DNA of 64,000 bases. It comes from Paludibacteraceae bacterium. Lineage in GTDB: Bacteria > Bacteroidota > Bacteroidia > Bacteroidales > Paludibacteraceae. Both the position numbers and the translations under genes were made by a program. The notes below the pieces were generated by a model. That model ran no database searches. It saw nothing but the letters and a program-made list of their open reading frames with translations, and was not told the DNA's origin. Below are positions 6,345 to 60,400 of the stretch, one piece after another (the stretch's first letter is position 1; each line of letters begins with the position of its first letter). The stretch covers positions 5,633 to 69,632 of the forward strand of contig JAZLHD010000179.1 in NCBI GenBank assembly GCA_045616645.1. Direction: 5' to 3'.

Positions 6345-6370
6345 CAGCCAAAATCAATATTTACATCATT

Positions 6371-10600: not shown

Positions 10601-11177
10601 TGTGAATATCCTCGTACTCGATACGGAGGTTTATTCGAATACGGGTGGTCAGGCATCCAAATCGACGCCTCTGGGTGCTATTGCTAAGTTTGCTGCCATG
10701 GGTAAGCGCGTGCGTAAGAAAGACTTAGGTATGATTGCTACCACGTATGGTTATGTTTATGTTGCTCAAGTGGCGATGGGTGCGGACCAAGCACAGACAC
10801 TGAAAGCCATCCGCGAAGCAGAGGCTTATCCCGGACCATCGCTTATCATCGCTTATGCTCCTTGTATCAACCATGGTTTGAAAGCGGGTATGGGTAAGTC
10901 GCAAGAAGAGGAGGCAAAAGCTGTGGCTTGTGGTTACTGGCACTTGTGGCGGTATAATCCACAATTAGAAGTTGAGGGTAAGAACCCCTTCACCTTGGAT
11001 AGCAAAGAACCTCAATGGGAGCAGTTTGAAGACTTCCTTAAGGGCGAAGTGCGCTTTGCCAGTGTGATGAAACAATATCCTAACGAGGCAGCCGAACTCT
11101 TCCAAGCCGCACAAGATAACGCTAAGTGGCGCTATCGCAGTTACTTGAGAATGCTTGCCACCGATTGGACCAAATAA
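7635..11177 (+). CDS. nifJ: pyruvate:ferredoxin (flavodoxin) oxidoreductase
   Basis: 1180-aa ORF. N-terminus GNTAAAHIAYMFTEVAAIYPITPSS, two ferredoxin-like motifs (CIECNKCAYVCPH, CLGCGNCVDVCP) and a TPP region GGDGASYDIGYGGLDH. Confidence 0.97.
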   Translation: MKEKKFLTCDGNTAAAHIAYMFTEVAAIYPITPSSPMAENVDEWAAGGRQNMFGEQVLVQEMQSEGGAAGAVHGSLAAGALTTTFTASQGLLLMIPNMYKIAGELIPTVFHVSARTLASHVLCIFGDHQDVMACRQTGFAMLAEGSVQEVMDLAGVAHLSTIKSRVPFLNFFDGFRTSHEYQKVEVVDMEDLRPLVDMEALNEFRQRALSPMRPVMRGMAENPDVFFTHRESCNTYYDKVADIVSDYMNEISKITGRTYRPFTYYGAPDAESMVIAMGSVCECLKEVIDYEAANGKKLGMINVHLYRPFSLKYLQEALPKSVKRICVLDRTKEPGANGEPLYLDVKDALQELGLTHIEVVGGRYGLGSNDTTPAQMLAVYENLNLPQPKNHFTVGINDDVTFTSLPVGEEIAMGDKSLFQAKFYGLGADGTVGANKNSVKIIGEGTDKYCQAYFSYDSKKSGGFTCSHLRFGDEPIRSTYLVTTPNFVACHVQAYLKMYDVTRGLQKGGTFLLNTIWSGDELKQNLPDKVKKYFAENDIRCYYINATKIAQEIGLGNRTNTILQSAFFRITEVIPVEKAVEEMKHFILKSYGKKGEDVVNKNYAAVDRGGEYHLLDIDPAWKNIEVKEESGVAGDPAFIANVVRPINAQAGDLLPVSSFKGIEDGTWPSGTAKYEKRGVSAFVPVWNADNCIECNKCAYVCPHACIRPFVLDEQEKQGFEAATREMKAPAALKGMHFRMQVGVMDCLGCGNCVDVCPGNPKLGKALTMVPLEGQEEEAKNWDYCVNNVKSKQDLIDIQSNVKNSQFATPLFEFSGACSGCGETPYLKLISQLFGDREIAANATGCTSIYSGSVPSTPYTTNEKGQGPAWSNSLFEDFCEYGLGMQIAHRKIKERLARLMTKAQDCTCCSEELKAMFREWLENKNSAEVTKRLYEPMVAAMTACGCDTCKQILQYKDHIVKRSQWIIGGDGASYDIGYGGLDHVIASGEDVNILVLDTEVYSNTGGQASKSTPLGAIAKFAAMGKRVRKKDLGMIATTYGYVYVAQVAMGADQAQTLKAIREAEAYPGPSLIIAYAPCINHGLKAGMGKSQEEEAKAVACGYWHLWRYNPQLEVEGKNPFTLDSKEPQWEQFEDFLKGEVRFASVMKQYPNEAAELFQAAQDNAKWRYRSYLRMLATDWTK

Positions 11178-11214
11178 TCACTAAACAATAAGCAATAATC
11201 AATAATCAATATTA
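11173..11214. repeat. degenerate heptamer tandem repeat AATAATC x6 bridging the nifJ stop and the next gene's ATG
   Basis: Units aataatc/actaaac/aataagc/aataatc/aataatc/aatatta read off at 7-nt spacing. The same unit recurs at 12433-12456 and 62774-62787, each time at a stop codon. Confidence 0.85.
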
Positions 11215-12454: not shown

Positions 12455-13933
12455 ATGCACAACATCCAAGCTGAGGCTTTTGACTGCCTTTTATGTTTCT
12501 CTGCACCGTGTAATAGTGCTTGTCCGAAGGGTTTGCATCCTGCGCGTGGCGTTCGTGCCATCCGTTTTGGTAATGCCGATTTAGCCGGACATTGGCTCAC
12601 CGATGCGTGTGCCGATTGCGATGCTCCTTGCGAGAAAGCGTGTATCCACCCCGACCAACCTATCCGTATACGAGAGATGGCAAAACAGGTGAATACGAAT
12701 ACTCTAAACTCTAAACTCTCCACTCTAAACTCAATAGATTTATCTATTGATTTCTGCGGTATCCATTGTGAGAACCCGTTCTTTCTCGCTTCGTCGGCTA
12801 TCGCCACGAACTACGAGATGATAGCGCGTGCCTTTGAGATGGGGTGGGGTGGCGTGTATTACAAGACCATCACGGACATTAAGATAGAGGAAGTTAGTCC
12901 TCGCTTTGATGCTATCAAGGATTTGAATAGAAGTTTTACGGGGTTCCGAAACATGGAACAACTCAGCGAGCAATCGCCTGAGGAGAACTTCGATATCATC
13001 AAACGACTCAAGCAAAACTATCCAACGAAGATTGTCGTGGCTTCCATTATGGGACAGACCGATGATTCGTGGGAGACGTTAGCCAAACAGGCTGAGGAGG
13101 CCGGAGCGGATATGCTCGAACTGAACTTCTCTTGCCCGCAGATGAAGACGCGTGGTTTAGGCTCCGACATAGGACAGAATCCCGAATTGGTGGCTTTCTA
13201 TACCACGTTTGTTAAACGGGCGGTATCGATTCCTGTCATTGCAAAGATGACTCCGAATATCACTTCGATGGTTCCCGTTGCCATGGCAGCTACCTTTGCC
13301 GGAGCAGATGCGATCTCAGCTATTAACACCATTAAGTCCGTCACGATGTCTCAAGCCAGTATGGTAAGTGGCAAACGAACGGTGAGTGGATATTCCGGCA
13401 ATGCGGTCAAACCGATTGCACTCAAACATATTCTGGATATGAGCAAGAACCCGATGCTGCAAATCTCGGGCAAACAACTGCAATTGAGTGGTATAGGCGG
13501 CATTGAGACCTGGCATGATGCGTTGGAGTTTATTCAACTCGGCTGCCAAAATGTGCAAGTCTGCACGGCGGTTATGCAATATGGCTATCGCTTGATAGAG
13601 GACCTCAAATTGGGCTTACAAAACTATATGGCGACTAACCATGTCAAATGCTTGCAAGACCTCGTAGGTTCGGAGTTGCACACGTTTGTGGCTCCCTCTC
13701 GTTTGGATCGTAAGACGCTGGTTTATCCTAAGTTCTTGCGTGACAAATGTGTCGGCTGCGGCCGCTGCTATGTCGCTTGCCAAGATGCCGGTCACCAAGC
13801 TATCGAGTTTGATTGGCAGACGCGTCAACCCAAACTCAATGGACATAAATGTGTAGGCTGTCACCTCTGTCGCTTCGTCTGTCAACAAGAGGCGATAGGT
13901 GATACCAATCGTATTCCCAAACCACAAAAATAA
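12455..13933 (+). CDS. dihydropyrimidine dehydrogenase PreA-like flavoprotein. It fuses a DPD-type N-terminal Fe-S segment with a C-terminal 2x[4Fe-4S] domain.
   Basis: N-terminal CLLCFSAPCNSACPKG resembles the DPD N-terminal cluster motif. DHODH/PreA-like core (FCGIHCENPFFLASS, LELNFSCPQM, SGIGGIETW). C-terminal CVGCGRCYVACQ and CVGCHLCRFVCQ. The start is moved to the ATG at 12455, because the track start overlaps the upstream gene. Confidence 0.8.
   Translation: MHNIQAEAFDCLLCFSAPCNSACPKGLHPARGVRAIRFGNADLAGHWLTDACADCDAPCEKACIHPDQPIRIREMAKQVNTNTLNSKLSTLNSIDLSIDFCGIHCENPFFLASSAIATNYEMIARAFEMGWGGVYYKTITDIKIEEVSPRFDAIKDLNRSFTGFRNMEQLSEQSPEENFDIIKRLKQNYPTKIVVASIMGQTDDSWETLAKQAEEAGADMLELNFSCPQMKTRGLGSDIGQNPELVAFYTTFVKRAVSIPVIAKMTPNITSMVPVAMAATFAGADAISAINTIKSVTMSQASMVSGKRTVSGYSGNAVKPIALKHILDMSKNPMLQISGKQLQLSGIGGIETWHDALEFIQLGCQNVQVCTAVMQYGYRLIEDLKLGLQNYMATNHVKCLQDLVGSELHTFVAPSRLDRKTLVYPKFLRDKCVGCGRCYVACQDAGHQAIEFDWQTRQPKLNGHKCVGCHLCRFVCQQEAIGDTNRIPKPQK
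12702..12736. repeat. heptamer cassette CTCTAAA x5 (ctctaaa ctctaaa ctctcca ctctaaa ctcaata), in frame in the PreA-like gene
   Basis: Read directly. It encodes [12 protein letters not shown] in the linker between the Fe-S segment and the flavin domain. Confidence 0.9.
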
Positions 13934-15329: not shown

Positions 15330-16126
15330 TGAAATACGCGGCTACAATCGGTTTCTTCGATGGTGTTCATTTAGGGCACCAATACCTCCTCTCCTGTTTG
15401 AAAGAGGAGGCGGCGAAGCGTGGGTTGCAGTCAGCGATTGTGACCTTTGATGAACACCCTCAACAAGTCTTGCGGGGTGAAGCACCGTTGTTACTTACGA
15501 CTTTTAATGAGCGTATCACGCGATTGAGGTTTACCGGAGTAGATAAGGTAATCAGTTTTGATTTTGATCGCATTCACACCCTGTCAGCGGACGAGTTTGC
15601 ACAACTCCTTCACGATTCCTATGACGTCGATGTCCTCATTATGGGCTATGACCACCGCTTTGGTTGTACCAATCACAAATCACAAATCACCAATCACCAA
15701 TTAGAAATCATCCGTCTTCCCGAACTTCCTTCCAACCAACATGTGTCTTCTACTCAGATACGGCAAGCTCTTTTGAAAGGGGAGATAGTCAAGGCTAACG
15801 AGATGTTAGGTTACGCATATACTTTGATGGGAAAAGTGGTTCATGGCAAAGGGTTGGGACGGACGATTGGTTTTCCGACGGCAAACATTGAGGTAGAAAA
15901 AGATAAACTTATTCCTGCTCCAGGCGTTTATAGCGCCGAATGGAATGATAAAAAAGTCCTCCTCAATATCAACGACACCATCGAGATGTATGTTCCTCAT
16001 TTTGAGGGCGATTTATATGACCAAACCCTCTTTGTCGAACTCATCGCTCGTGTACGAGGGGAAAAACACTTTGATAATTTAGAAGATTTAAAAATACAAA
16101 TACAAAAAGATCTTTTATCATTATGA
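15329..16126 (+). CDS. ribF: bifunctional riboflavin kinase / FMN adenylyltransferase
   Basis: GFFDGVHLGHQ at the N-terminus and the kinase motif GKGLGRTIGFPTANI. At 265 aa it is shorter than I recall typical RibF (~310 aa). Confidence 0.9.
   Translation: MKYAATIGFFDGVHLGHQYLLSCLKEEAAKRGLQSAIVTFDEHPQQVLRGEAPLLLTTFNERITRLRFTGVDKVISFDFDRIHTLSADEFAQLLHDSYDVDVLIMGYDHRFGCTNHKSQITNHQLEIIRLPELPSNQHVSSTQIRQALLKGEIVKANEMLGYAYTLMGKVVHGKGLGRTIGFPTANIEVEKDKLIPAPGVYSAEWNDKKVLLNINDTIEMYVPHFEGDLYDQTLFVELIARVRGEKHFDNLEDLKIQIQKDLLSL
15670..15697. repeat. heptamer cassette (C/A)AATCAC x4 inside ribF
   Basis: caatcac aaatcac aaatcac caatcac encodes TNHKSQITNHQ directly after GYDHRFG. Confidence 0.9.
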
Positions 16127-18849
16127 AATCACCAATCACCAATCACAAATCACAAATCACCAATCACAAATCACAATTCACAATTCTTCTCTTATCCTTT
16201 GTCCTTTGTCCTTTGTCCCTTTTTGCTGCTGTTCGTACTGTAGACGAGGCGGCTGCTCTCGCATCGACGTTTAGGAACGAGACCGTAGTCGGACCTCATA
16301 AAGCACCCACATCGGCGGCTTCGATGCAACTCATTCACCAACGCACGAAACTCCAAAGCGAAGAGCCGGCTTTCTATATCTTTAACACTGCCAACGAGAG
16401 TGGGTATGTTATCGTCAGTGCCGATGACCGCACGGAGGAGATCTTAGGTTATTCCGAGCAAGGTTCCTTGGATTATGCAAATCTCAACCCAAATATGGCG
16501 TTTTGGTTGCGTCTCTTACAAGAGGCTATCTCGGCAACCAACGATACGAACACCTCTGCCAAAGCACCGATGGCAACGACGGCTATCGGTCCACTACTTG
16601 TTAATAAAGAGGGTAAGGAGATAACGTGGTATCAAGAGGCTCCCTATTCTAATCTGTGCCCATTAGATTCGGATAACAAACGCTGTTTGACGGGTTGCGT
16701 GGCTACGGCAGCAGCACAAGTGATGTACAAATGGTGTTACCCCAAACAGGGTATTGGTACCCATTCCTATGAATGGACGAACTCGGCAGGAAAGGAGAAA
16801 ACACTGACGGTTGATTACGGAAACACCACCTACGATTGGGGAAATATGCTCCCTTCCTATTTGTATAAATCCTCTACTTCCAAGCAAAAAACCGCCGTGG
16901 CAACACTCATGTACCATGCCGGTGTGGCTTGTAATATGCAATATTCGTCACAAGGTAGTGGCTCTTTAACGGATCTCATGGCGAACGGATTGGTAGATTA
17001 TTTTGGTTATCAGGTGGATAAGTTTATCACTACCTATTCGTCACGGTATTATCCTTCTGATTTTAAACCGACAGAGTATAAGGTTTCTATTACTAAGTTC
17101 ACCGAGTATTTCAATGCCGACTTAGAGAATGGTTATCCTATCATCATGGGCGGTGAGGATAGCGATGGCGGGCACGAGTTTGTGTGCGATGGACGAGATG
17201 CGCAAGGGAAATTTCATATTAACTGGGGTTGGGAAGGCGATAGCAATGGCTTCTTCTCCTTATCGGCATTAAAGGTAGATGGTTATAACTTTTCCTCGAA
17301 CATCGACGCGATCATCGGTCTGCGCCCGGCTAGCATGGATACGATTCACGTCACTTCCGTTTCGGTCAGTCCTGCTTCTACCACACTGAAAATCAATGAG
17401 CGCAAGCAACTGACGGTAACGATTCAGCCTACGAACGCAACCGACAAAAAAGTATCCTATACTTCTTCCAACCTCGAAGTAGCACAAGTCTCTGAACTCG
17501 GTGTCGTTCGTGCGGTGGGTGCAGGTAAGGCGAAAATAACGGTTACAACCAGTGATGGAGGGTTAACTGCGGTAAGCAATATCACCGTTACCAATGAGTA
17601 TGTCCCTTCGGATATTTTTGAGTTAGTGACTGATGCCTCGTCCCTTCAAGAGGGCGATGACATCATCATGGCAGCCACTTATAGCAATGTCCATTATTGC
17701 TTAACCAACTCCATGCATGCTACAACCAACACCAACTATGCCGACTGCGAACAAGTGCAGATTGTGGATAATACCATCACGATAGAAGACAATTCGAATA
17801 TCGCAATCTACAAGTTGGGTATTCAAGATGGAGCTTGGACGCTAATCAATGCAGATGGAAAGAAATTAGGTGCCTTGGGTGCCAAGAAACTGAGCTTTGA
17901 TTTGGGTTCGGTAACGTGGACACTGGACACCAAAAACAATAACACCACCATTGCGAACACCAACACTTCCTATGGTCGTATCTTGTACAATAACAATAAT
18001 AACAATCCTCGTTTCAGTATCTATACTTCTAACACCTCTAACACGATGTTGTTACCGCAAGTTTATGCGCGTAAAAGAAATCAGCCGGTAGAGGTGGTTA
18101 AAGTGACGGGGATAGAGTTAGGTCAGACTTCCGCACAGATGCTCGTTGACGAAGAGATTTTCCTCTATTATGCTGTCAAACCGGTAGCGGCAACGAACCA
18201 AGCGGTGATGTGGACTTCGTCTAATACGAAGGTGGCTGTCGTGGATCCTTCTCACCATTCGCTGGAGGATGAAAAGACCGTTTCTATTAAAGCCATCGCT
18301 GAGGGAGAGGCTACGATTACGGCAAAGACCCTGGATGGAGGCTTTGTAGCTACTTGCGTGATTACCGTCACCGAACAACCTATTGTGCCGACGGATACTA
18401 CTTTTATTATGGCTTCGGAGGCGAAAACGATTGCTATGCAGTTACCTGCAGGCGATCAAACGACAGACTTCTATGGAGTCAAGGGATATGTCACGGTCAA
18501 AAACTCTGTCGAATATCAGGGCTTTTGGTTGGACGATGAGCCGACTGCTAAAGAGACTTTCCAAGGCTTCCAATGCGCTATGCCGGATGACCACCTCTAC
18601 TTACAAATAGGAGAGTACGTGTGCGTCTATGGGTATCTCATGAACTATAACAACGAGAAGGCGCAGATTAAGAATGGTACGGTTGAGGTCTTAGATATAC
18701 CCGTTCCGCAAGGTTTATTGGATCCCTCTGCCTATCCGCCTTTCAGCCCATCTGCCTCTCAGCCGATCATGAAAGTTTTGGAGCATGGTCAGATGCTCTT
18801 CCTCCGTGCTGCAAAGAAGTACAACGTCTTAGGTTGCCCGATAAAGTAA
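16123..18849 (+). CDS. secreted C10-family (streptopain-like) cysteine peptidase with Big_2 Ig-like domains
   Basis: Catalytic-Cys context CLTGCVATAAAQVMYKW and His context GGHEFVCDG. Two Big_2-like segments (VTSVSVSP...ITVTN; VTGIELG...ITVTE). ATGA overlap with ribF. Confidence 0.85.
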   Translation: MKSPITNHKSQITNHKSQFTILLLSFVLCPLSLFAAVRTVDEAAALASTFRNETVVGPHKAPTSAASMQLIHQRTKLQSEEPAFYIFNTANESGYVIVSADDRTEEILGYSEQGSLDYANLNPNMAFWLRLLQEAISATNDTNTSAKAPMATTAIGPLLVNKEGKEITWYQEAPYSNLCPLDSDNKRCLTGCVATAAAQVMYKWCYPKQGIGTHSYEWTNSAGKEKTLTVDYGNTTYDWGNMLPSYLYKSSTSKQKTAVATLMYHAGVACNMQYSSQGSGSLTDLMANGLVDYFGYQVDKFITTYSSRYYPSDFKPTEYKVSITKFTEYFNADLENGYPIIMGGEDSDGGHEFVCDGRDAQGKFHINWGWEGDSNGFFSLSALKVDGYNFSSNIDAIIGLRPASMDTIHVTSVSVSPASTTLKINERKQLTVTIQPTNATDKKVSYTSSNLEVAQVSELGVVRAVGAGKAKITVTTSDGGLTAVSNITVTNEYVPSDIFELVTDASSLQEGDDIIMAATYSNVHYCLTNSMHATTNTNYADCEQVQIVDNTITIEDNSNIAIYKLGIQDGAWTLINADGKKLGALGAKKLSFDLGSVTWTLDTKNNNTTIANTNTSYGRILYNNNNNNPRFSIYTSNTSNTMLLPQVYARKRNQPVEVVKVTGIELGQTSAQMLVDEEIFLYYAVKPVAATNQAVMWTSSNTKVAVVDPSHHSLEDEKTVSIKAIAEGEATITAKTLDGGFVATCVITVTEQPIVPTDTTFIMASEAKTIAMQLPAGDQTTDFYGVKGYVTVKNSVEYQGFWLDDEPTAKETFQGFQCAMPDDHLYLQIGEYVCVYGYLMNYNNEKAQIKNGTVEVLDIPVPQGLLDPSAYPPFSPSASQPIMKVLEHGQMLFLRAAKKYNVLGCPIK
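16126..16181. repeat. heptamer tract (C/A)AATCAC x8 between the ATG and the hydrophobic core of the C10 peptidase signal peptide
   Basis: Eight consecutive 7-nt units are counted from 16126. A second heptamer CCTTTGT x3 at 16196-16216 encodes part of the hydrophobic core. Confidence 0.9.
18725..18764. repeat. octamer cassette (NNNNNGCC x5, reverse orientation of GGCTGAGA) in the C-terminal linker of the C10 peptidase
   Basis: cctctgcc tatccgcc tttcagcc catctgcc tctcagcc encodes PSAYPPFSPSASQP. Confidence 0.85.
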
Positions 18850-18934: not shown

Positions 18935-21601
18935 TTAATCGCAGAGGGGAGCGAAGGGGCAGGAAGTGCATTTATTGTAAGTGTCTTCCGTACAAGGGAA
19001 GGGGTTTTCGGGATGGCGTATCTCTTCAATCAGTTTCTTTACATAACCCAGAAACTCGTCTCTGATTTCCTCTACCTTCACAGACTCTTGCCCCTTCTGA
19101 TGTACTGCCGTCTCGGCTCCTTGCGCCAGCGACCGTACCCCATAGATGTGCGGTTCGCCCTGTCCATAAAGGATAGCATAGAGAATCGTCTGCAAAGCGT
19201 ACCCATTGCGCTTGCTGTCCGTCGGGTCAAAGAGCGAAGCTATCGAAGCGAACTCTGTTTCCGACCCGCCCGTCTTGTAATCGACTATTCTGATAGGCAG
19301 AGAGGCGGAAAGGCTGATAGGCTGAGGGGAATCGACTCGGTCGATGGTGCCTTTGAGGGTGACGATAGTGCCATCGTCCAACGTAAGCTCCATTCGACGC
19401 GGCTGCTCAGTTGCGATATATTGGAAAGGTGCTAAAGCAAGGTCGTGTTCGAGAATAAGACGGGCGTATTCCCTCAGTAACGTCGAAAGTAAGTCTTCAC
19501 CCTTCGGCAACGACTGTAACATCTTATTCACATCCTCCTTCGTCACCTCCTTCCCCACAAACGGCTCGTAACAGTTCTGCAAGATAAGATGCAGTTTCGT
19601 ACCTAACTCGCGAGGATCAATCTCCTCCGTCACTTCCTCCGGCTCTTGCAAACCACGGATATATTGCCAATAATATAGTTTCGGACAACGAAGGTACGTG
19701 TTTAAGCCCGAAGGGCTAAATGAGTTGAGAGTGGAGAGTGTAGAGTTTAGAGTAGTTTTATAGTTGAGAGTTGAGAGTGGAGAGGCAGAAAGGCTGATAG
19801 GCTGAGAGGCAGAAAGGCTGAGAGGCTGAGAGGCGGAAAGGTGGATGATGGGGTGCTTAAACTGGTATTGCAACTGATAGAGGTAACGACTGGGTTCACC
19901 CGAGTGCTGCTCATCGGTTCGGGTATTGGAGAGCAACCACACATCCTTGGCATAACTAATCATCCGATAGAAGTTATAAGCAAAAATAGCGTCCTTGCGC
20001 TCCGACGTAGGCAATGCTGCCTTGCAACGGAAAGAGTAGGGAATAAAACTATTAGCAATACTGTTCCCGGGATAGATATCATCATTAAAACTCGTGATAA
20101 TCAAATGCTCAAAGTCCAACGCACGCGTCTCTAATACACCCATAATCTGTAAGCCCTCAAGAGGTTCGCCCCTATATGCTATCGTTTCAGTTTGGAGCAA
20201 AGCCCCTACCAAGCCTCCCCCCGAAGGGGAGGATGTGTTAGGCTGAGAGGCGGAAAGGCTGAGAGGCTGAGAGGCGATGTATTTATCAATCCGATTGAGG
20301 ACCGTTTGGATCTTATAGACGGCTTCGGAGGCATCTTCGGGCAAGTGGTTCAGTATCTCGCGCCAGCGTTGGTCATCCTCGGAGAAGATACAAGACAAAT
20401 ACTCGTCTTTCTCGAAATACGAAACAGGAACATAGATGAGGTTCTGCTTGACCATCGCTTCTTGAATGCTCGCACAAGCCTCGGCACTCAGCCGTTGGAT
20501 ATACGGGTGCGACAAAACCGACTTCACATCCTTGTAATAAAACCCATTCTCCGTTCGACGACGATAAAGGTCCACTATAATCTGAATAAGTGCAAACACC
20601 GGTGTCGCTACCAACGGATAACCTGCCGTGACGTTGATCTTATCTATGTCTTCGGGTAAGGTGTGCAACAAAGGCAGTAACAATCGCTCATCGGGCATCA
20701 CAACTGCCGTCTTGGTCAATGGTAAGGGCCTTTCTAACTCGCTTAAGATACGATGTACCTCCTGCGCCTCGCCTACCGTAGAGGTTAGTTCTACCCAGTG
20801 TATCTCAGGAAAATGAACCTCACTCTGAGGCACTGTAAAACGAGAGTGGAAGAGTTTTTGGTTGTGCTCCATAAACAGAGACGAACGGTTGTCTTTATCC
20901 GTCACCCATGGATGTGAATAATCAAAATAGAAGTCGGCTCTGCCTTGTTCTTGCAAGAGAACCATCAATCGTTCCTCACTCTGCGTTAAGGCATTGAACC
21001 CGATAAAAACAAACTGCTGGTCGGGGTGCTCATCAAGCCAAGCCACTTGTTCCGCTTCCAACGCTGTAATCACCTCGCGATGAAGCATTCCATCGTAAGC
21101 CAGCCCCTCGCGTCGTAACTCGTCTTGCAGACGTTGGTAGATAATATCCAATGGCGGATAAGGAATGAAAGGAGCTTGTCCCTCGGTTTGGAAAGAGGCT
21201 TCTATATCGTGTGCCTCGCGGATATTAAGCAAAAAGCCAATAGGGTTATCTACTAAGTGATTGTCTATCTCATTAAAATCCCCAATCATCATCTTTCCCC
21301 AGAAAAGGAAAGTATCTAAATCTTCCTCCGTCAGTCCTTGTTCTCGTCTTATCTCGTTATGGATGCGGTAAACGCGCAAAAGTAAGTCTATCGGGTCTGC
21401 TAATTGGGTATTGGTGAACTGATAGAAACAGTCATTGATAGTCAGAATCGTTGGTGAAAGAGTCGGTTTGCCGCACGCTATTCCGAGGTCTCTGCGAAAG
21501 AAAAGACCTGCCCGCTGGTTGGGGAAAACAAACGTGTAAGAGGATAACTTATCTCCTACGTTTTGGGCGAAGAGCCTTGCCAAGTTTTGTAAATAACTCA
21601 T
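18935..21601 (-). CDS. PD-(D/E)XK nuclease family protein (AddB/RecB-like nuclease with a C-terminal Cys cluster)
   Basis: C-terminal GTIDRVD...RIVDYKTGG...QTILYAILYG nuclease motifs and CTEDTYNKCTSCPFAPLC. The start is set at MSYLQNLARLF (ATG 21599-21601). The track start at 21643 extends further into the antiporter gene. Confidence 0.75.
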   Translation of the reverse strand: MSYLQNLARLFAQNVGDKLSSYTFVFPNQRAGLFFRRDLGIACGKPTLSPTILTINDCFYQFTNTQLADPIDLLLRVYRIHNEIRREQGLTEEDLDTFLFWGKMMIGDFNEIDNHLVDNPIGFLLNIREAHDIEASFQTEGQAPFIPYPPLDIIYQRLQDELRREGLAYDGMLHREVITALEAEQVAWLDEHPDQQFVFIGFNALTQSEERLMVLLQEQGRADFYFDYSHPWVTDKDNRSSLFMEHNQKLFHSRFTVPQSEVHFPEIHWVELTSTVGEAQEVHRILSELERPLPLTKTAVVMPDERLLLPLLHTLPEDIDKINVTAGYPLVATPVFALIQIIVDLYRRRTENGFYYKDVKSVLSHPYIQRLSAEACASIQEAMVKQNLIYVPVSYFEKDEYLSCIFSEDDQRWREILNHLPEDASEAVYKIQTVLNRIDKYIASQPLSLSASQPNTSSPSGGGLVGALLQTETIAYRGEPLEGLQIMGVLETRALDFEHLIITSFNDDIYPGNSIANSFIPYSFRCKAALPTSERKDAIFAYNFYRMISYAKDVWLLSNTRTDEQHSGEPSRYLYQLQYQFKHPIIHLSASQPLSLSASQPISLSASPLSTLNYKTTLNSTLSTLNSFSPSGLNTYLRCPKLYYWQYIRGLQEPEEVTEEIDPRELGTKLHLILQNCYEPFVGKEVTKEDVNKMLQSLPKGEDLLSTLLREYARLILEHDLALAPFQYIATEQPRRMELTLDDGTIVTLKGTIDRVDSPQPISLSASLPIRIVDYKTGGSETEFASIASLFDPTDSKRNGYALQTILYAILYGQGEPHIYGVRSLAQGAETAVHQKGQESVKVEEIRDEFLGYVKKLIEEIRHPENPFPCTEDTYNKCTSCPFAPLCD
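19296..19327. repeat. octamer cassette GGCNGANA x4 inside the nuclease core of the AddB-like gene
   Basis: ggcagaga ggcggaaa ggctgata ggctgagg. It encodes QPISLSASLP between IDRVD and RIVDYK. Confidence 0.9.
19725..19847. repeat. composite array: heptamer family (TTGAGAG/TTTAGAG, 19725-19784) abutting octamer family (GGCTGAGA x8, 19784-19847)
   Basis: Units were read off base by base. It encodes SASQPLSLSASQPISLSASPLSTLNYKTTLNSTLSTLNS in frame. Confidence 0.9.
20200..20272. repeat. 38-nt palindromic element (20200-20237) followed by octamer cassette GGCTGAGA x4 (20241-20272), in frame in the AddB-like gene
   Basis: The reverse complement of 20200-20237 is cacatcctccccttcggggggaggcttggtaggggctt. 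It matches 32490-32527 at 36/38 positions. Confidence 0.9.
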
Positions 21602-23432
21602 ATATTGTCTGCTTAACGGTCGTAACCACGCGCCATGTACCACTGGCTTGCGGAATATCCATCAATAACCGGTCGGGTATATCGCCTCCGATAATCTGCT
21701 CGGGATAGATGAGCATCGTACTATGGCTTGCCGCTTGTTGGGTCAGGATATCGGGAATACGCGTGAACAACGGGTTATAACTCGGTGTCGATTTGCGGGA
21801 AGAGATAAGCACTAACATATCATTATCCTCCAAGTCCTGAATCGTCTTACGCGTGTCCTGCCACTCGTTGATGGTGCGATAAGAGGCAGCCAAGTATTTG
21901 CCCGGACGGTTACAGAGGGCACGTAAGATCATTTGCGTTTGCTCGGTGGCGTAGAACACCACTTTGGCACCAATCTGACTACTCAAACGGCGCAACTGAC
22001 CGAAACAGGAGATGAAGTCGTGCTCTTTCTCGGCGTAAGGTGGAACGGCAATAAGCATTCTGTCAATCGTGTTGAGTGGCTGATTCTCATGGTAGATAGC
22101 AATCGATTTAGAGGTGTGTTCCACCATCGTTTCCACTTCTTTCCAGTCTGCACACTCCACTATCTCGGTTTCGTGCAAGGAGGAAAGGTTACTCAGTTCC
22201 TTGAGTTCTTGATGCAAGTCCTCGCCTACCGATCCCATCAACCAGTCGTCTAAGACACGTTCGCTCTCTAATCGGGCATCCTCTTGTAAGGACAACCGCT
22301 TAGCCGCATATTCGGTGGCGAAAGAAGCCGTTGTACAAAGTACAAGAATCATCAAAATAACGCCATTTAATATCGCGTCGTCAAACAGTCCCATCTGATA
22401 GACAATCGTTACAATAGCTAATGTGCCGGCAGCGGTGGCGTGACTAAGACCGAAGATAAGTTGACGCTCGTTTGCCTGTAAATGGAATAATCCCTGTACA
22501 CAGGCGGCAGCGAGCCATTTGCCTACTAACTTAGTGACAATCATCACGGTAGCTATTATCGCTAACCAGCCCCACGAACCTACGGCTTGCAGGTTGAGCA
22601 TCAGTCCCACTTCAATCAGGAACACGGGCACAAACATACTATTGCCCACGAACGTGATGTGATTCATCAGTTGTGAGAGGTTGGGTATCAACCTATTCAG
22701 CGCTACCCCGCAAAGGAATGCACCGAGTACACCACTCAGTCTTGCCCAAGTGCATAATAAGGCGGATAGAACCATTAAGGCAATCACTAAAATAAAGTTC
22801 GTCGTTGTCTCCCAACGGAACTTAAAACACGTTCGAACAAGCCAAGGGAATCCGCCTAAGATAATAGCAATCACGCCCACTACTTTGCCTGCCCAAATAA
22901 GAAGTGAGATAGGTTCCATCGCTCCCGTCTGCATCTTTGCTTGCACACCGGCTAACACCAATAACGAGAGCGTGAGTGCAATCATCGTTCCCCCTACCGT
23001 GATGTTCGAGGCGGCACTTTTCTGCAAACCGTAACGCCGAACGATAGGGTAGGTCATCAATGTGTGGCTACCAAACATCGCACCCAACAAAAGTCCTACA
23101 ACAGGACTCAATCCCAATAACCTTGAGGATAGATATCCCAATCCCAATGGGAAAAAGAACGTGAGCAAACCAAACACAATCGCTTTGCCGCGTTGTTGAC
23201 TGAAATCGTTAATGTCAATCTCTACCCCTGCTTGGAACATGATATAGAGCATACCCAATTGTCCAAACACTTGGATAGCCGGTGTGTCCGCTAAGATATT
23301 CAAACCGCACGGACCCAATCCCACTCCCACTAAGATAAATCCGATAATAGCGGGAATATGAATCTTGTGACAAATCAGAGGGACGATAAAAATCAGCCCC
23401 AACACAATCATAAGTGGAATCAGTGTTTGCAT
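21549..23432 (-). CDS. cation:proton antiporter (CPA family Na+/H+ exchanger) with a C-terminal soluble domain
   Basis: About 12 predicted TM segments with GQLGMLYIMFQAGVEID, typical of Na_H_exchanger proteins. 13-nt overlap with the murG stop. Confidence 0.8.
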   Translation of the reverse strand: MQTLIPLMIVLGLIFIVPLICHKIHIPAIIGFILVGVGLGPCGLNILADTPAIQVFGQLGMLYIMFQAGVEIDINDFSQQRGKAIVFGLLTFFFPLGLGYLSSRLLGLSPVVGLLLGAMFGSHTLMTYPIVRRYGLQKSAASNITVGGTMIALTLSLLVLAGVQAKMQTGAMEPISLLIWAGKVVGVIAIILGGFPWLVRTCFKFRWETTTNFILVIALMVLSALLCTWARLSGVLGAFLCGVALNRLIPNLSQLMNHITFVGNSMFVPVFLIEVGLMLNLQAVGSWGWLAIIATVMIVTKLVGKWLAAACVQGLFHLQANERQLIFGLSHATAAGTLAIVTIVYQMGLFDDAILNGVILMILVLCTTASFATEYAAKRLSLQEDARLESERVLDDWLMGSVGEDLHQELKELSNLSSLHETEIVECADWKEVETMVEHTSKSIAIYHENQPLNTIDRMLIAVPPYAEKEHDFISCFGQLRRLSSQIGAKVVFYATEQTQMILRALCNRPGKYLAASYRTINEWQDTRKTIQDLEDNDMLVLISSRKSTPSYNPLFTRIPDILTQQAASHSTMLIYPEQIIGGDIPDRLLMDIPQASGTWRVVTTVKQTIYELFTKLGKALRPKRRR

Positions 23433-28417: not shown

Positions 28418-28445
28418 AAGTTGAAAGTTGAAAGTTGAAAGTTGA
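28418..28445. repeat. heptamer tandem repeat AAGTTGA x4 filling the mraY-murE intergenic gap
   Basis: aagttga x4, perfect. The same unit (agttgaaagtt) also ends the dapA cassette at 290-299. Confidence 0.9.
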
Positions 28446-28459
28446 AAGAAGTTGTATAG

Positions 28460-32082: not shown

Positions 32083-33075
32083 CTAAATTTTCTCTGCTAT
32101 TCTCAGTTTTGCCGACCGACTTCTCGGATTGCGTTCCACTTCCTGCTTATCCGCCATCAACCCTTTTTCAATTACCTTAAACGGTGTTAACGCGTTGCCA
32201 TAAAAATCTTTCTCTATCTCTCCCGTCAAGTTCCCCGACCTTAAAAAGTTCTTCACTATCCTATCCTCCAACGAGTGGTAGGTCAGTACCACAAGTCTTC
32301 CTCCGGGTGCTAACAAATCCCGCGCAGCACAAAGCATTGTCTTCAGAGCTCCTAATTCATCATTTACCTCTATTCGTAACGCTTGGAACACCAGCGTTAA
32401 CATCTTCTTCTCCATAGGATTCGCTTCCTCCGCTTTCTTTCCTATCAGTGCTTCAACTAACTCTTCAATCCGTTGTATCCCTCCTTCTTCACATCCTCCC
32501 CTTTGGGGGGAGGCTTGGTGGGGGCTTCCTGTCGCTTGTTTAATCTTCTTCGCCAACGCCCTACTATTCTTCAACTCGCCGTACAGGTACAGCACTTTCG
32601 CCAAATCCTCTTCGCTATACGTATTCACTATATCCGCTGCGGTTTTGCCGCCTTCGCGGTTCATTCGCATGTCGAGAGGACCGTCAAACCGAAAACTAAA
32701 TCCTCTTTCCGCTTGGTCAAAGTGGTGAAAACTAACCCCAAGATCCGCGAGTAGTCCATCAATATGATCCACACCGTAATAATCCATAAAGTTCTTGAGG
32801 TATCGGAAATTACTGTGTACAAACTGCCACTGCTCGTCTTTTACCACCTCCGGCCGATGAACTTTTGCATTTTCGTAGGCCTCAATATCCTGATCAAACG
32901 AATATAACTTTCCTTTCCGCCTCTCCGCCTCTCCGCCTCTCAGCCTTTCCAGTATCGCTGCCGAATGTCCCCCTCCTCCGAACGTCACATCCACATAGAT
33001 GCCGTTAGGCCTGATGTTCAGTCCCTTTATTGTCTGCTCCAACATCGCGGGTATGTGATACACGTCATTCTTCAT
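32083..33075 (-). CDS. rsmH: 16S rRNA (cytosine1402-N4)-methyltransferase
   Basis: YHIPAMLEQ..., DVTFGGGGHS, DLGVSFHHFD and LTYHSLEDRIVKNF motifs. At 330 aa it carries two extra low-complexity segments encoded by repeat elements. Confidence 0.95.
   Translation of the reverse strand: MKNDVYHIPAMLEQTIKGLNIRPNGIYVDVTFGGGGHSAAILERLRGGEAERRKGKLYSFDQDIEAYENAKVHRPEVVKDEQWQFVHSNFRYLKNFMDYYGVDHIDGLLADLGVSFHHFDQAERGFSFRFDGPLDMRMNREGGKTAADIVNTYSEEDLAKVLYLYGELKNSRALAKKIKQATGSPHQASPQRGGCEEGGIQRIEELVEALIGKKAEEANPMEKKMLTLVFQALRIEVNDELGALKTMLCAARDLLAPGGRLVVLTYHSLEDRIVKNFLRSGNLTGEIEKDFYGNALTPFKVIEKGLMADKQEVERNPRSRSAKLRIAEKI
32490..32527. repeat. 38-nt palindromic element (cacatCCTCCCCtttgGGGGGAGGcttggtgggggctt) inside rsmH, antisense to the gene
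   Basis: Hairpin CCTCCCC/GGGGAGG. 36/38 identity to the reverse complement of 20200-20237. A related copy at 62797-62831 is intergenic. Confidence 0.9.
32914..32945. repeat. octamer cassette (tttccgcc tctccgcc tctccgcc tctcagcc) inside rsmH
   Basis: It encodes RGGEAERRKG between GGGHSAAILERL and KLYSFDQD. Confidence 0.9.
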
Positions 33076-33574: not shown

Positions 33575-33788
33575 CAAAAAAAAAATGATATACACCACTT
33601 TTCCCCACAAAAAATTTTAATTTTTTATTATCAACAACTTATTAACATAAAAAGTTGGCTGCTAATCAACTAATCATTAGACACTTATATTACTTATTAA
33701 CATTGTGGTGTAAAGTGGGGTGGTTTTGTGTGGTCTTTGTGTTGGAAAATATAAAATGTACCGTTTTGGGTTAAAATTGCAAAAAAGA

Positions 33789-33820
33789 TTTGCGCATATT
33801 AAAACTTTTTTGTAATTTTG
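33789..33820 (+). promoter_or_regulatory. sigma-A type promoter with no ORF for about 600 nt downstream (-33 TTTG 33789-33792, -7 TAATTTTG 33813-33820)
   Basis: TTTG-N20-TAnnTTTG. The 22 nt aaacttttttgtaattttgcag are identical to the ftsB promoter at 4961-4982. Confidence 0.65.
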
Positions 33821-33910
33821 CAGCCAGTTTTTCGAGAAACGGAGTTAATCGTGCCCTTGTGGCTAAGACGTGTCGAAAACAAAATGGAAAAATAACAGGT
33901 AATAGTTGGA

Positions 33911-34378
33911 TATCTCTCACAGATTCCACAGATTACGCTGATTGATTGATAATTTATTATTTTTTTATTTCTTTTTTTCGTTAGTTGTGAGTAAACTCCC
34001 ACTACCAAAAAAGAAGAACTAAAAAAGGGAATGTTCCTAACGTCACATCCCGTGCCTAACGGCACTAATAACAAATTATATAGGGATATATTGCACAGAC
34101 GTGAGGAGAGAGTAAAGTTTAGAGTGTAGAGTTTAGAGTGTAGAGTAGCCGTCTAGTTTATAAGTTTAGAGTTTAAAGGCAGAGAAATTCTGTGGAATAA
34201 AACCGCTAATAAGCCCTTATTGTGGATGCGAAAGCAGACACGGCGGGTGAACGAAGTGAACCAGCACCTACTATTGATATATTTGATGGATGGGAGTTTA
34301 CTCACAATCCGAGAATAAATAAATAGGAGGAATAAAAAAACAGAAAATCAGAGGAATCTGTGAAATCTGTGAGAGATA
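33911..34378. repeat. long imperfect inverted repeat: arms 33911-34001 and 34291-34378, about 289-nt centre
   Basis: Two collinear pairs. 33911-33934 pairs with 34355-34378 (23/24). 33985-34001 pairs with 34291-34307 (17/17, ttgtgagtaaactccca). Confidence 0.85.
34118..34178. repeat. intergenic heptamer cassette TTTAGAG/TGTAGAG with the core tagccgtctagtttataag
   Basis: tttagag tgtagag tttagag tgtagag + core + tttagag tttaaag. The core plus flanks closely match the dapA cassette (258-291). Confidence 0.9.
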
Positions 34379-41098: not shown

Positions 41099-41181
41099 TC
41101 AACGAATCCTGTAAGCCCCCTCTCATATAGGGGAGGGGGTGAAAAAGGTAACATAATTAACCAATAAATTTTATTAAAACA

Positions 41182-50116: not shown

Positions 50117-50143
50117 AGATGAAAATATTTCAAAAATCGACTG

Positions 50144-50175
50144 CAAAGGTACACTTTTTTTTGGATATATGCAAA
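50144..50175 (-). promoter_or_regulatory. sigma-A type promoter for the kinase operon. On the + strand, -7 is caaaggta at 50144-50151 and -33 is caaa at 50172-50175.
   Basis: The reverse complement reads TTTG-N20-TACCTTTG. Confidence 0.7.
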
Positions 50176-50191
50176 TATTTTTGTATCTTTG
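50160..50191 (+). promoter_or_regulatory. sigma-A type promoter for the GH20 gene (-33 TTTG 50160-50163, -7 TATCTTTG 50184-50191)
   Basis: TTTG-N20-TAnnTTTG, interdigitated with the divergent promoter. Confidence 0.7.
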
Positions 50192-50213
50192 CAGTCAAAA
50201 ATAAATATCACGC

Positions 50214-52415: not shown

Positions 52416-52443
52416 GGATTTTTCTTACAATCTGCAAAAAATA

Positions 52444-52475
52444 TTTGCATATATGGAAAAAATGTATTATCTTTG
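52444..52475 (+). promoter_or_regulatory. sigma-A type promoter for the R-M cassette (-33 TTTG 52444-52447, -7 TATCTTTG 52468-52475)
   Basis: TTTG-N20-TAnnTTTG. It is part of a 39-nt direct repeat with 54766-54804. Confidence 0.7.
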
Positions 52476-52525
52476 CAGCCGAAAACAAACGCAAGTCTCA
52501 TGTATAACAGTATATGTAATAAGTA

Positions 52526-54731: not shown

Positions 54732-54770
54732 ATATTTCTGTGTTTTGTTGCCGAAAAAACACAGAAATAT
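54732..54770 (+). terminator. 15-bp perfect hairpin downstream of the R-M cassette, with a weak T tract
   Basis: atatttctgtgtttt (54732-54746) pairs with aaaacacagaaatat (54756-54770). Its 3' arm runs into the next promoter. Confidence 0.5.
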
Positions 54771-54801
54771 TTGCATATATGGCAAAAATGTATTATCTTT
54801 G
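54770..54801 (+). promoter_or_regulatory. sigma-A type promoter for the HAD gene (-33 TTTG 54770-54773, -7 TATCTTTG 54794-54801)
   Basis: TTTG-N20-TAnnTTTG. Confidence 0.7.
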
Positions 54802-54885
54802 CAGTGAAATTTAGGAATAAATGTATATTTTGACCACAAAAAGAAAGGAATAAATGTATGTTTATGAATCCGGGCTCAAATCAGA

Positions 54886-55704: not shown

Positions 55705-55803
55705 GTGCTGTAATCCCTCGCCATCTGTGAGAGATAAAAATACTCAAAAAACCTTAAAAATAGTTGCAAAATAAAAAAAATGACATTTTTTTCATGTAAA
55801 TTA

Positions 55804-55834
55804 TTGCATATATCGTAAAAAAGTATTACCTTTG
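55804..55834 (+). promoter_or_regulatory. sigma-A type promoter for the nucleotidyltransferase gene (-33 TTG 55804-55806, -7 TACCTTTG 55827-55834)
   Basis: 20-nt spacing and the ttgcatatat context. Confidence 0.6.
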
Positions 55835-55894
55835 TGCGAATTTTTATTACCACGCACTCTTGCGCGAGTGGGGTGAATAGTATAAAAAAATAAC

Positions 55895-57068: not shown

Positions 57069-57178
57069 AAGACGATTATAAAACCAATAATTAACTCAAA
57101 ATACCAACTAATAAAAATTTACTTTTCGCTTGCGTATGAATAATAAATTATTGCAGAGAAATTACACAGATAGTGTAG

Positions 57179-57210
57179 GGCAGAAAGGCGGATAGGCAGA
57201 TGGGCGGAGT
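57179..57210. repeat. intergenic octamer cassette GGCNGANN x4
   Basis: ggcagaaa ggcggata ggcagatg ggcggagt. Confidence 0.85.
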
Positions 57211-57498
57211 GATTTTTAGTAAAGAAGCAAAAGCATCTGTGGAATGAATTTATTAGGCAACGCGGTACGCGGTGCGAGGAGGTGAGCAAAGCGAACCTAT
57301 AGTTACTTTTTAGTTTTTGTTAGGTTATGGGAGCTCGCTCACGATAACATAACGAAAATAAAAAGGAGATAATAAATGATAATCAGTGTAATCAGTGTAA
57401 TCTGTGAGAGATAAAAAGAATCAATGAAAATGAGCGAAGCAGTAATAGTATCGCACCAATAATTAACTCAAATATTAACTCTCAAAAATTTAATTACT

Positions 57499-60400
57499 AT
57501 GAAAAACGAAGTTAATCGTGCCCCTTGGGCTAAGAAAAAAACATTTCTATTTATTTTAGCCCTGTGCGCAGCGAGTGTGGCGTGGGGTGCAACTACGGTC
57601 ACCAAGACTGCTAAACAGATTGCGGATGCGAATGGATGGACTAAGGTCAGCACTGCGTATACATCTGCAAAATTGGATGACAACATCACAATAACTGTTA
57701 CGCCAGGAACAGAGGATAAAAAAAATGGTGTATATTATACGGGTGACTATACCGATACATACGATTGGCGTATGTATCAAGCACGTGCTAATGGGCAATT
57801 TACAATCTCGGCTGCTGATGGGTATCTAATTACATCCGTTAAATTGACCTATGAAATTACCAATTCGGGTGTGGTCAGCATTTCCAAAAAACAAAACAGT
57901 GTAGCAACGCCGGAAACGGATAGAATTATTTCTGGTACATCTTGTCCTTTTGCGGCCCAAGATCTTACTTTCTATGTGGGCAATACTACTGCTACCACGA
58001 CAAATGGTCAAGCACGTATTCGCAGTTTCTCGGTTACTTATGAAAAAGGAATATATGATGATTTTAGAGACCCTGCTACAGGAAAGCAGTTTTCATACTC
58101 TTCGGCGACTGAAAAATCGGTTATCACTCAATGTTTTGCATGGACTGTCCATCAATGCCGCTTTAATGTGAGCAATGATATGGACAAATTAGCGGATGGC
58201 ACTCTTAGTCATACTATGTGGAAGAGTAGTGGCAGTTATCTGAAAACCGAAGCAGTTGAAGGCGGTGTAAAATTTGTTTCTTTCCCGTGGAATCAAGCAA
58301 ATGCAGACGAAAGTAGTAAGGGTACTGAAACAGTGAAAGTTACCGTAGATACAAAGACTCAGTCTCAAAGCCGTGATGGGAAAAAAGGAGAAAACCGTGG
58401 AGCCGATTCGATTTTTGCGTATGCTTGCAATGTTGCTAAAAACGCCGATGTTAAGATTGAGATTACAGCTGGAAACCGTATCACAGTTGGTCCTATCACC
58501 TTCGTCCCGTATCTGCGCTATACCCAAAAATCGGATGAGTTAATCATTTTAGCAAGCGAAGCCGAAGCAACCTACAAGAACGAAGCCTTCATTAACAATA
58601 CCGGCGCAACACCTACTTTCTCGATCATTTCTTCTGAACCGGCTTCCATCGCTACAATCGCTGAGGATGGTACGGTAACGGCTACCGCCTCCGGCACAAT
58701 CACTGTTCAAGCCAAATGGGAAAATGTGACCACTACGTACACACTCAATATAACGAAGAATAGTCTCCCTGTTCCGCAAGTTAGTTTTGAGTATGACCCA
58801 GTAGAAAAAACGATGAATGATGTTCCGTTTGTCAATGCTATTACCGCTCCGACAGAAGGTTTGGGCGCAATTACATATAGCAGTACAGATCCTACAGTAG
58901 CTGAAGTAGCAACAGATGGTACGGTTACAATTATTGGTGCAGGTGAAACGAAAATCCAACTTGCCATTGCGGCTAGTGAGACATGGGCTGCTACGGATGC
59001 CGAATATACTTTAACCATCACTGATCCTCAGGAAGAGGCTATTATAGAGACCTTCCCGAGAAGTTCCTCCGGTAGTAATACTGAAAATAAGATAGGTAAA
59101 TATTACGAATGGACAGTAACAGGGGGCGCACGTACGAGAACTACCGATACGTTGTATATTAAGGGTGATAATGAAGAAAAATATAGCATTTGGTTGTCTG
59201 GTAATGACGCGGCTTCTATCTCAACTACGATTGAAGGTGGTGTTAAACGTGTAGGCTTCCTTTGGAATAAGTTTAACAAAGATGCTTCTTCTGTTACTAT
59301 CAGCGTAAAGGCGGGAGATGTAGAGCGCAAACTTACGAAGGAGGTTCAAACGGGTGTTAACCAAAATAATCCCGATTTAGAGTTCAATAGTAACTTCGGG
59401 GTTAAGAGTAGTAACACAACATTAACGATTTCTAAAGAAAAACTTGATGCATCAACCGCTTTGCAAGTAGGTCCGATTAAGATCACTCCGTATCTGCTTT
59501 ATACCAAGAAGACGCTTACTGTTAAATTAGCTGATGTTAAGTCTGTGGGTATCACTAACGAAAAATTGATTGACAATACCGAGGAGGAGGGTACTATTGT
59601 ATATTCCGTTCCGGAAGACAATGGTGTTGCTACTATTGAATCTGCTACAGGAAAATTGACTATTTCTGCTGCTGGCGAGGTAATTGTTACTGCTGCTTGG
59701 GATCCTGAAGGTGGAGATAACTATACGGTCACTACTACCTATAAGTTAATAGTTAACGACCGTAGCCATCGTGAGGCTAAGTTCGCATCTCCACAAGTGA
59801 CTATGAAACAAGGCGAGGATTTGCCTGGCAACGAGTTGACGTATGCTAAAGCTTCCGGTGAATCCATTACAATCAATTATGCTTCTTCTGATAATACGGT
59901 GGCTGAGATAATTAATAATGCGGTAGTAGTTACGGGAGTCGGCATGACAACGATTACTGCCACGATTGAGCAAACGGATGATTTCTATGAGGATAAGGCC
60001 TCCTATCTACTGATAGTTTATCCTAAGGAAGATGCTAAACATGTTTTAGTAGAGGATTATAAAACAGCGACAGGAGGTTTAGCCTCTACCGGAACTCAAT
60101 ATCAAGGGAATTTTGCCACATGGACTTATCGTAATTCTCGTAGTAAAGATACAGATATATTGAAAGAAGGTACGAAGGGATTTATGTTTAGTCATACCAA
60201 TGGAGAGAATAAAGCAAGTTCGTATTTTGAGGCGACTTTAGATGGGGGCATAAAGGCGGTATATTTTGATTGGAAACAATTCACGAAAGATGATAATGGT
60301 CAAAATCTCATTTTCCAAATCAAGATTAATAATTCCGTCAAGAAGTCAATCGAGGATGTCGCCAAAGACGAATTGGTAGATAATATCCAATCTTTCTGTT

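Follow-up and report, generated by a model that had tools for sequence, protein, structure and literature searches.

The 64,000-nucleotide stretch analyzed here (the window) is taken from a Paludibacteraceae bacterium (assembly GCA_045616645.1, contig JAZLHD010000179.1, positions 5,633 to 69,632 of the forward strand) and contains three copies of a short hairpin repeat, one of them in frame within rsmH and another in frame within a gene for an AddB-like nuclease. The three copies belong to a short interspersed repeat family that is spread through the Bacteroidota. The family is dispersed over many nonhomologous sites and genomes, occurs within genes in both orientations and is biased toward gene 3′ ends. 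The encoded peptide is missing from orthologues and from solved structures and is modeled as a disordered loop. We consider it moderately probable that the family is a repetitive extragenic palindromic (REP)-like and probably mobile repeat, tolerated inside genes in the manner of the Rickettsia palindromic elements (RPEs).

Three Copies of the Repeat in the Window

A repeat search aligned positions 32490-32527 (plus strand) with the reverse complement of positions 20200-20237 at 36 of 38 bases (95%). This match had been reported, with its coordinates and with open frames through both copies, in a sequence-only reading of the window, and it was confirmed by the sequence, the repeat search and the translations of the open reading frames (ORFs). 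The unit is read antisense in rsmH, where it encodes GSPHQASPQRGGCEE, and sense in the AddB-like gene, where it encodes SSPSGGGLVGA (NTSSPSGGGLVGAL), as had been claimed. A 32-nucleotide (nt) pattern allowing up to three mismatches is found at these two sites only in the 64 kb, and 0 sites are expected from 100 dinucleotide-preserving shuffles.

Copy 1 (32482-32529, plus strand) is a 48-nt segment of rsmH that is missing from insert-free orthologues and holds the 38-nt unit 32490-32527. The stem is formed by CCTCCCC (32495-32501) and GGGGAGG (32507-32513), and the tail CTTGGTGGGGGCTT occupies positions 32514-32527. Copy 2 (20200-20237, minus strand) is the 38-nt unit in the gene for the AddB-like PD-(D/E)XK nuclease; the GTAG that it contains is a variant of this single copy. 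Copy 3 (62792-62837, core 62800-62831, plus strand) is intergenic and was matched by covariance model.

The model (R1) was built from 115 copies found in the genome scan described below and the three window copies, and nearly all of its input was thus from other genomes. On the window it returned copy 3 at 62792-62837 (42.2 bits, E 1e-10), copy 1 at 32488-32532 (38.6 bits) and copy 2 at 20195-20240 (35.1 bits). No full family copies beyond these three were found in the 64 kb using this model. The third copy suggested earlier at 62797-31 is therefore real, and it has the top score and the best fit to the family consensus among the window copies. The model match starts 14 nt past the stop codon of an ORF for a surface protein of 1759 amino acids (aa; 57499-62778) and lies before the next gene. 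Copy 3 folds into an extended hairpin that includes the upstream CTCCTTCT (z −3.2).

A 38-nt variant of the unit, CACAT-CCTCCCC-TTYG-GGGGGAGG-CTTGGTRGGGGCTT, is present in the clade of the window, including the related assemblies L122 and L124. This subfamily gave 0 matches in a metagenome scan.

A looser relative had also been proposed at about 41114-41140 (plus strand). It was rejected as a family member, since model R1 matches positions 41108-41150 through the 9-nt tail only (E 0.4). The segment forms a strong GC-rich hairpin (z −4.4) located 16 nt past a susD-like ORF and consists of two inverted GAGGGGGCT tail motifs with the inner hairpin missing. It may derive from the family, or it may be a terminator-like hairpin of unrelated origin.

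A Repeat Family in the Bacteroidota

The pattern CCTCCCCNNNNGGGGAGGNNNGNNNGGGGCT was searched in one genome per bacterial or archaeal species (596 Gb), for which about 0.3 chance matches are expected. At least 120 genomic contig stretches match the pattern, nearly all of them from Bacteroidota. The possibility that no further copies exist genome-wide, raised with the sequence-only reading, is thus set aside. The copy statistics given here and below refer to the 145 copies in the 120 stretches listed.

The hosts include metagenome-assembled genomes (MAGs) of rumen and gut Prevotellaceae and Bacteroidaceae, Prevotella pectinovora P4-76 (many contigs) and P. histicola, together with Mucilaginibacter, Cytophagales, Chitinophagaceae, Prolixibacteraceae, Mangrovibacterium and Draconibacterium. 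At least 20 copies are present in P. pectinovora. Copies are also carried by bins labeled Oscillibacter (L007, L010, and L031) and Opitutae (L030, L040, and L082); these bins are probably contaminated with Bacteroidales, since their flanks match P. pectinovora (L037 and L049) or Prevotellaceae subfamilies. Only three matching stretches were found in viral contigs, which gives no sign of phage carriage.

The consensus of the 145 copies is YY-CCTCCCCC-TT-GGGGGAGG-YY-GGGAGGGGGCT or, with any two bases in the loop, YY-CCTCCCCC-NN-GGGGGAGG-YY-GGGAGGGGGCT, a unit of 33 nt or 11 codons. It is composed of a 7-8-bp hairpin of a C-run and a G-run, two pyrimidines and an asymmetric G-rich tail that ends in GGGGCT, with a core of 31-38 nt. 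Similarity among the copies breaks off sharply at positions −2 and +1. The folding energy of the hairpin as DNA is modest, at about −7 to −8 kcal/mol. Compensatory variants of the stem, such as CTTCCCCC/GGGGGAAG in L011, are anecdotal.

No Rfam family matches the window at the gathering threshold, and none matches around copy 3 at E ≤ 1. No description of the family was found in a paper library searched by literal sequence and by topic.

Copies inside Genes

Among the 145 copies, 42 (29%) lie within open frames that measure 600 nt or more and extend 120 nt or more to either side of the copy. Of 600 random positions in the same loci, 407 (68%) fall in such frames, and the element is therefore depleted in genes. 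The genic copies are divided into 19 sense and 23 antisense. In the antisense copies the frame is, with few exceptions, SPLPTSPKGEE; in the sense copies all three frames occur. As read from the consensus, the unit is free of stop codons in all six frames.

Ten of the spanning frames were identified by Pfam as real genes of housekeeping or core metabolism. Their products are the glutamate synthase large subunit GltB, an FAD-oxidase/Fe–S protein, LeuRS (two copies), ValRS, MutS2, RecG, TamB, a GltD-like oxidoreductase, a cyclomaltodextrinase (amylase) and a member of GH95.

Seven or more hairpin elements, in both orientations, lie in frame within the gltB gene of L004 (1029-5804, minus strand). 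They represent the family described above (family A) and from a second one, family B, which has the same architecture (CCCCTCTCC-NNNN-GGAGAGGGG-YY-GGGGGTGAGGCT) and encodes the peptide SLTPNPSPVGEGN. The observation extends to L019, L001, and L069, and one remnant of A directly adjoins a copy of B.

At one site the GltB of L004 reads IILTDK-ME-LLPQGGGREGA-FY-IPSLLA. Most of the 120 GltB homologues retrieved read IILSDR-DIDETHAA-IPSLLA or a close variant, with DIDETHAA as the ancestral loop. Segments in related lineages look like decayed forms of the insert, judging from their sequences. A gapped flank pattern for the empty gltB site gave 0 matches in a metagenome scan.

Many GltB homologues (P0278-P0286, P0309-P0322, and others) are fragments of about 720-745 aa despite long contigs of up to 1.5 Mb. 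Their coverage of about 62-80% of the query suggests that they end near one of the sites of element insertion, by estimate, and a possible cause is that inserted repeats have split the gene or shifted its frame.

Placement between Genes

The majority of the copies in the scan sample are intergenic, by crude ORF calls. Copies between convergent genes number 21 and those between divergent genes 6. Tandem genes enclose 27 copies; 19 of them run antisense to the gene upstream, and most of the 19 start 0-38 nt past its stop codon. Another 12 copies overlap a gene 3′ end or provide it. No signal of a target-site duplication was obtained at any combination of offset and k-mer, the best 3-mer match being 11 of 144.

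In P. pectinovora P4-76 (L049), clusters of copies in alternating orientation are located at 2669-3445 and 6822-7182, on both sides of a gene of 967 aa. Some pairs within the clusters of this species are 100% identical over 48 nt. The clusters resemble bacterial interspersed mosaic elements (BIMEs), and together with the identical pairs they indicate recent copying. In L049, and also in L053, they are mixed with a second type of hairpin, CCTTCCCC-AA-GGGAAGG, with AGCCCCC upstream.

Two other identities for the element were rejected. It is not an intrinsic terminator, since the hairpin is followed by the tail and not by a T-run or U-tract, and a terminator scan passes over copy 3. It is not a CRISPR array, given the irregular spacing and mixed orientation.

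An alternative to the REP-like reading is that the repeat is a motif with a function in the host, either as a stabilizer or terminator of RNA 3′ ends or as a DNA site for a conserved Bacteroidota protein, and that the genic copies are spill-over that is tolerated. The identity of the core throughout the phylum would then be maintained by selection for this function. We regard this explanation, which is compatible with mobility, as unlikely. The strong bias to positions just past stop codons and between convergent genes, the clusters that flank genes, the good fold of copy 3 and the near-identity of the core in hosts ranging from Prevotella to Mucilaginibacter and Cytophagales all speak for it, but the hairpin lacks the U-tract, copy 3 is not called by the terminator scan and there is no Rfam family. 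Moreover, 29% of the copies are genic, where a terminator would do harm, and the genic copies appear to decay.

The Insert in RsmH

The rsmH gene (32083-33075, minus strand) encodes the 16S rRNA m4C1402 methyltransferase of 330 aa (Pfam Methyltransf_5, E 1e-87) and sits in the dcw cluster with mraZ, ftsL and genes for penicillin-binding proteins as neighbors. Two hypervariable sites were located in an alignment of 33 RsmH orthologues. Copy 1 is at the second of these sites, where it encodes residues 183-198 (GSPHQASPQRGGCEEG) in the antisense reading.

The hairpin peptide is found at the second site in the window protein and in P0001 and P0002. Orthologues P0020 and P0031 lack the insert and read KQAT|DIKRIEDL and KQAG|EIHRIEEL, respectively. 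P0003, the second-closest orthologue of the alignment (92% over the aligned region), carries another peptide there, one derived from 8-mers. A homologous peptide is therefore missing from RsmH P0020, P0031, and P0003, and it is likewise missing from the AddB-like protein P0126 described below; its presence in orthologues without the nucleotide element had been named as grounds for refuting the sequence-only reading. That reading had also given a typical RsmH length of about 300-305 aa, which is borne out by the 303-313 aa of the insert-free orthologues and by gaps relative to the solved chains.

The sequences of the solved RsmH structures 1wg8 and 3tka align with gaps at both variable sites. 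In the AlphaFold2 model (mean pLDDT, the predicted local distance difference test score, 84), residues 184-196 have a pLDDT below 50 and lie between helices 171-183 and 203-211. The insert is thus predicted to be a disordered surface loop away from the core fold.

P0001 belongs to a 90% identity cluster with 26 members, of which seven were aligned, and the hairpin peptide is kept in all seven. Where the members differ, it is mostly in the one residue that the hairpin loop encodes (Q, R or K).

The first variable site is occupied in the window by an array of 8-nt CCTCTCCG units (32912-32950) that encodes GGEAERRKGK. Compared with the close orthologue L121, the array has exactly three additional units (24 nt), and the repeats found at this loop in close relatives are quite different. 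In P0366, from the same 90% cluster as P0001, QEAPNPTFPPKGKEERDGKQGA is found at the first variable site in place of the 8-mer array. From its sequence it looks like another hairpin-family insert, of the CCTTCCCC..GGGGAAGG type.

The AddB-like Gene and the Tandem Arrays

The AddB-like gene (18935-21643, minus strand) encodes a PD-(D/E)XK nuclease of 902 aa (PDDEXK_1, E 8e-31). In the orthologue P0123 (L124; proteins 75% identical) the 38-nt unit is found at the same site with 37 of 38 bases conserved, and the tandem array beside it differs from that of the window. The orthologue P0126 has an array of 8-mers of the window type together with NTS codons, and the hairpin is missing. In more remote orthologues the site of copy 2 is filled by a short segment of unrelated sequence.

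Copy 2 is directly adjoined by an 8-nt tandem array of AGGCTGAG and CCTCTCAG units (20240-20275), which, for the hairpin read on the opposite strand, lies where the tail would be. Several in-frame arrays of 7- and 8-nt units are present in the gene, and four were noted.

The window as a whole is rich in imperfect tandem arrays of 7- or 8-nt units such as GAGAGGCT, AGTTTAG, AAATCAC, TAGTCGTT and AAGTTGA. They are located at 837-886, 2145-2174, 11173-11211, 12701-12732, 15671-15710, 16126-16183, 18726-18768, 19290-19325, 19722-19841, 20240-20275, 28418-28448, 32912-32950, 34107-34146, 57166-57222, and 62657-62713. The same types of unit recur at many sites, between genes and in frame within them. 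Examples of genic arrays are the four of the AddB-like gene, that of rsmH and that at the N-terminus of a 908-aa ORF.

It is quite unlikely, in our view, that the copies are spread by homologous recombination or gene conversion between dispersed repeats and not by transposition, with the 7-8-nt arrays as landing pads, the tail expanded by slippage and hot-spot loops overwritten repeatedly by repeats close to them in sequence space. The two RsmH loops and those of the AddB-like protein do hold 8-mer arrays, 7-mer arrays or hairpins in close relatives; copy 2 adjoins an 8-mer array, tails are tandemly duplicated at several loci and there is no target-site duplication. Most of the 145 copies, however, have no flanking array, copy 1 has none adjacent to it, the boundaries are sharp at −2 and +1, and 33-nt units are embedded in unrelated unique sequence in gltB, valS and recG.

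Almost no credence is given to the idea that no DNA element is involved and that the shared sequence reflects protein-level selection for a flexible Pro/Gly/Ser linker, or simply a low-complexity composition. The encoded peptides are predicted to be disordered loops and the antisense copies strongly prefer the frame SPLPTSPKGEE, but one and the same DNA sequence is found in either orientation and in several frames, and mainly outside genes, and DNA that is identical at 36 of 38 positions, with no match expected by chance, encodes unrelated peptides. Because the DNA is identical in opposite orientations, convergence of the proteins and chance are both excluded.

Comparison with Known Repeats

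The sequence-only reading had likened the element to RPEs, as a repeat that is normally intergenic and also found in ORFs in either orientation. That description holds, with 29% of the copies genic and both orientations represented. Membership in the RPEs is not claimed, because the family is hosted by Bacteroidota and its unit measures 31-38 nt; the likeness is an analogy of behavior. The length of RPEs is roughly 100-150 nt, compared with the 31-38-nt core here. According to the passages on RPEs in PMC3733652, which cite Ogata et al. (2000/2002), they are found in frame and between genes, a single protein can contain several of them, and they are tolerated because the added peptide lies on the surface of the protein. 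The present family likewise occurs in frame in conserved ORFs and in intergenic DNA in either orientation, and in RsmH, the one protein for which a model and gaps in structure alignments were obtained, the encoded peptide is placed in a loop off the core fold. It differs in its Bacteroidota hosts, which are free-living or gut organisms and not obligate intracellular ones, and in its asymmetric G-rich tail.

In anatomy and distribution the family is closer to repeats of the REP/BIME type than to RPEs. Like the REPs, BIMEs and REPINs that go with RAYT (TnpA-REP) transposases, it is an imperfect palindrome of 20-40 nt with an asymmetric conserved end and many copies per genome. Further likenesses to REPs and BIMEs are the preference for 3′ ends and convergent regions, the alternating clusters, the lack of target-site duplications and the in-frame genic copies. 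The consensus CTCCTCCCCCTTGGGGGAGGTTGGGAGGGGGCT, however, has no GTAG or CGTC at the hairpin foot, the conserved core is shared by different orders of the phylum and is not specific to a lineage, and the genic fraction, about 29% in the sample, is much higher. REPs inside genes, including genes for repair and tRNA synthetases, were documented in several phyla by Di Nocera et al. (PMC3733652), and this kind of element is therefore already known.

Quentin et al. (2018, PMC6006769) place the subclass 2.6 REP-type TnpA-Y1 transposases mostly in Bacteroidetes. In their passages on this subclass, the genes are flanked by atypical hairpins with no GT[AG]G foot, weak structure and copies elsewhere in the genome. 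The present family shares with those hairpins the phylum, the missing GT[AG]G foot, the weak secondary structure and the copies elsewhere. Examples listed in the supplement are unlike its C-run/G-run hairpin and GGGAGGGGGCT tail, and neither the element strings nor "Prevotella" gave a relevant match in the available part of that supplement. We describe the repeat as a new family of a known kind.

Miniature inverted-repeat transposable elements (MITEs) such as Correia/NEMIS, RUP, and ERIC are also small, noncoding, dispersed and at times fused to ORF ends. This assignment was rejected, because the unit here is 33-38 nt compared with 70-300 bp and has neither separate terminal inverted repeats nor a target-site duplication.

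Proposed Mechanism

We infer transposition, the responsible enzyme, any role as RNA and translation of the insert. The repeat would be a nonautonomous REP-like element that is copied at the DNA level to new sites. It would probably move as a single-stranded hairpin, recognized in trans most plausibly by an enzyme of the Y1/HuH type, and the asymmetric conserved tail could be the guide or cleavage sequence. Single-stranded handling of this type would fit the lack of target-site duplications and the asymmetric conserved tail. The usual resting place would be gene 3′ ends, where insertions may be harmless or useful. Within genes, selection would leave only frame-keeping copies in surface loops; copies could persist there because the consensus is free of stop codons in six frames and the loops are permissive. 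An in-frame copy would be translated into a Pro/Gly/Ser-rich disordered loop and, being nearly neutral, would be inherited vertically and decay slowly.

Several observations weigh against a mobile REP-like element. No candidate transposase is linked to the element. No HuH/Y1 motif is present in any ORF of the window or of about 0.95 Mb of loci, a result that is uninformative because such genes are usually single-copy. REPs normally co-diverge with their transposase. The near-identity of the core across orders of the phylum is unusual for REPs and could point to a host function. The subclass 2.6 REPs look different from the family in the supplement examples of PMC6006769, which have GCT[AG]G and CG-type hairpins such as GCTAG-CGCGAGCG-TCC-CGCTCGTG. 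The hairpins of the genic copies are not significantly better than dinucleotide shuffles, and the stem bases were fixed by the scan pattern. The gene and intergenic classes and the placement counts depend on the crude ORF calls. Two metagenome scans gave no filled/empty pair with near-identical flanks, which leaves insertion a putative event with putative boundaries and target. The copy in rsmH is old, fixed and now immobile, since its peptide is kept in all seven aligned cluster members.

The REP-like reading can be extended to a Bacteroidota superfamily of repeats with a hairpin and a G-rich tail, driven by a conserved enzyme that would keep adding short in-frame peptides to surface loops of core proteins. 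This extension is tentative, and we hold it to be possible rather than probable. It would contain at least two sisters, A (CCTCCCCC..GGGGGAGG-YY-GGGAGGGGGCT) and B (CCCCTCTCC..GGAGAGGGG-YY-GGGGGTGAGGCT), and the dispersed 7-8-nt tandem arrays would perhaps derive from the tails of these families.

Another Repeated Motif in the Window

A motif of about 40-60 nt, TTTGCATATATG...N...TAnCTTTGCAG, is found upstream of many window genes in both orientations. Its sites are 4931-4990, 5948-5989, 6294-6353, 33770-33829, 50141-50200, 52425-52484, 54751-54810, and 55800-55841. To judge by its sequence, it appears to represent a promoter or leader module that these genes have in common.

Implications

The reach of the family across a phylum, the high genic fraction and the genes with multiple inserts are the notable features of this repeat. 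If the REP-like reading is confirmed, the remodeling of proteins by palindromic repeats would be a common process in a major phylum of the gut, the rumen and the environment, beyond Rickettsia and a few Proteobacteria. For annotation and phylogenomics, extra loops are present in RsmH, the AddB-like nuclease, GltB and aminoacyl-tRNA synthetases, and at least 10 residues of an alignment can be nonhomologous. In assembly and binning, identical repeats of 30-50 nt together with the arrays can break or misjoin contigs. Bacteroidota make little use of Shine–Dalgarno pairing, and inserts rich in GGAGG are tolerated within genes. The conserved asymmetric tail offers a handle in the search for the responsible enzyme. 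The superfamily, if real, would be a phylum-wide generator of protein length variation, gene splitting and breaks in MAG assemblies. The hypervariability of particular loops, which recurs between close strains, could be accounted for in this way.

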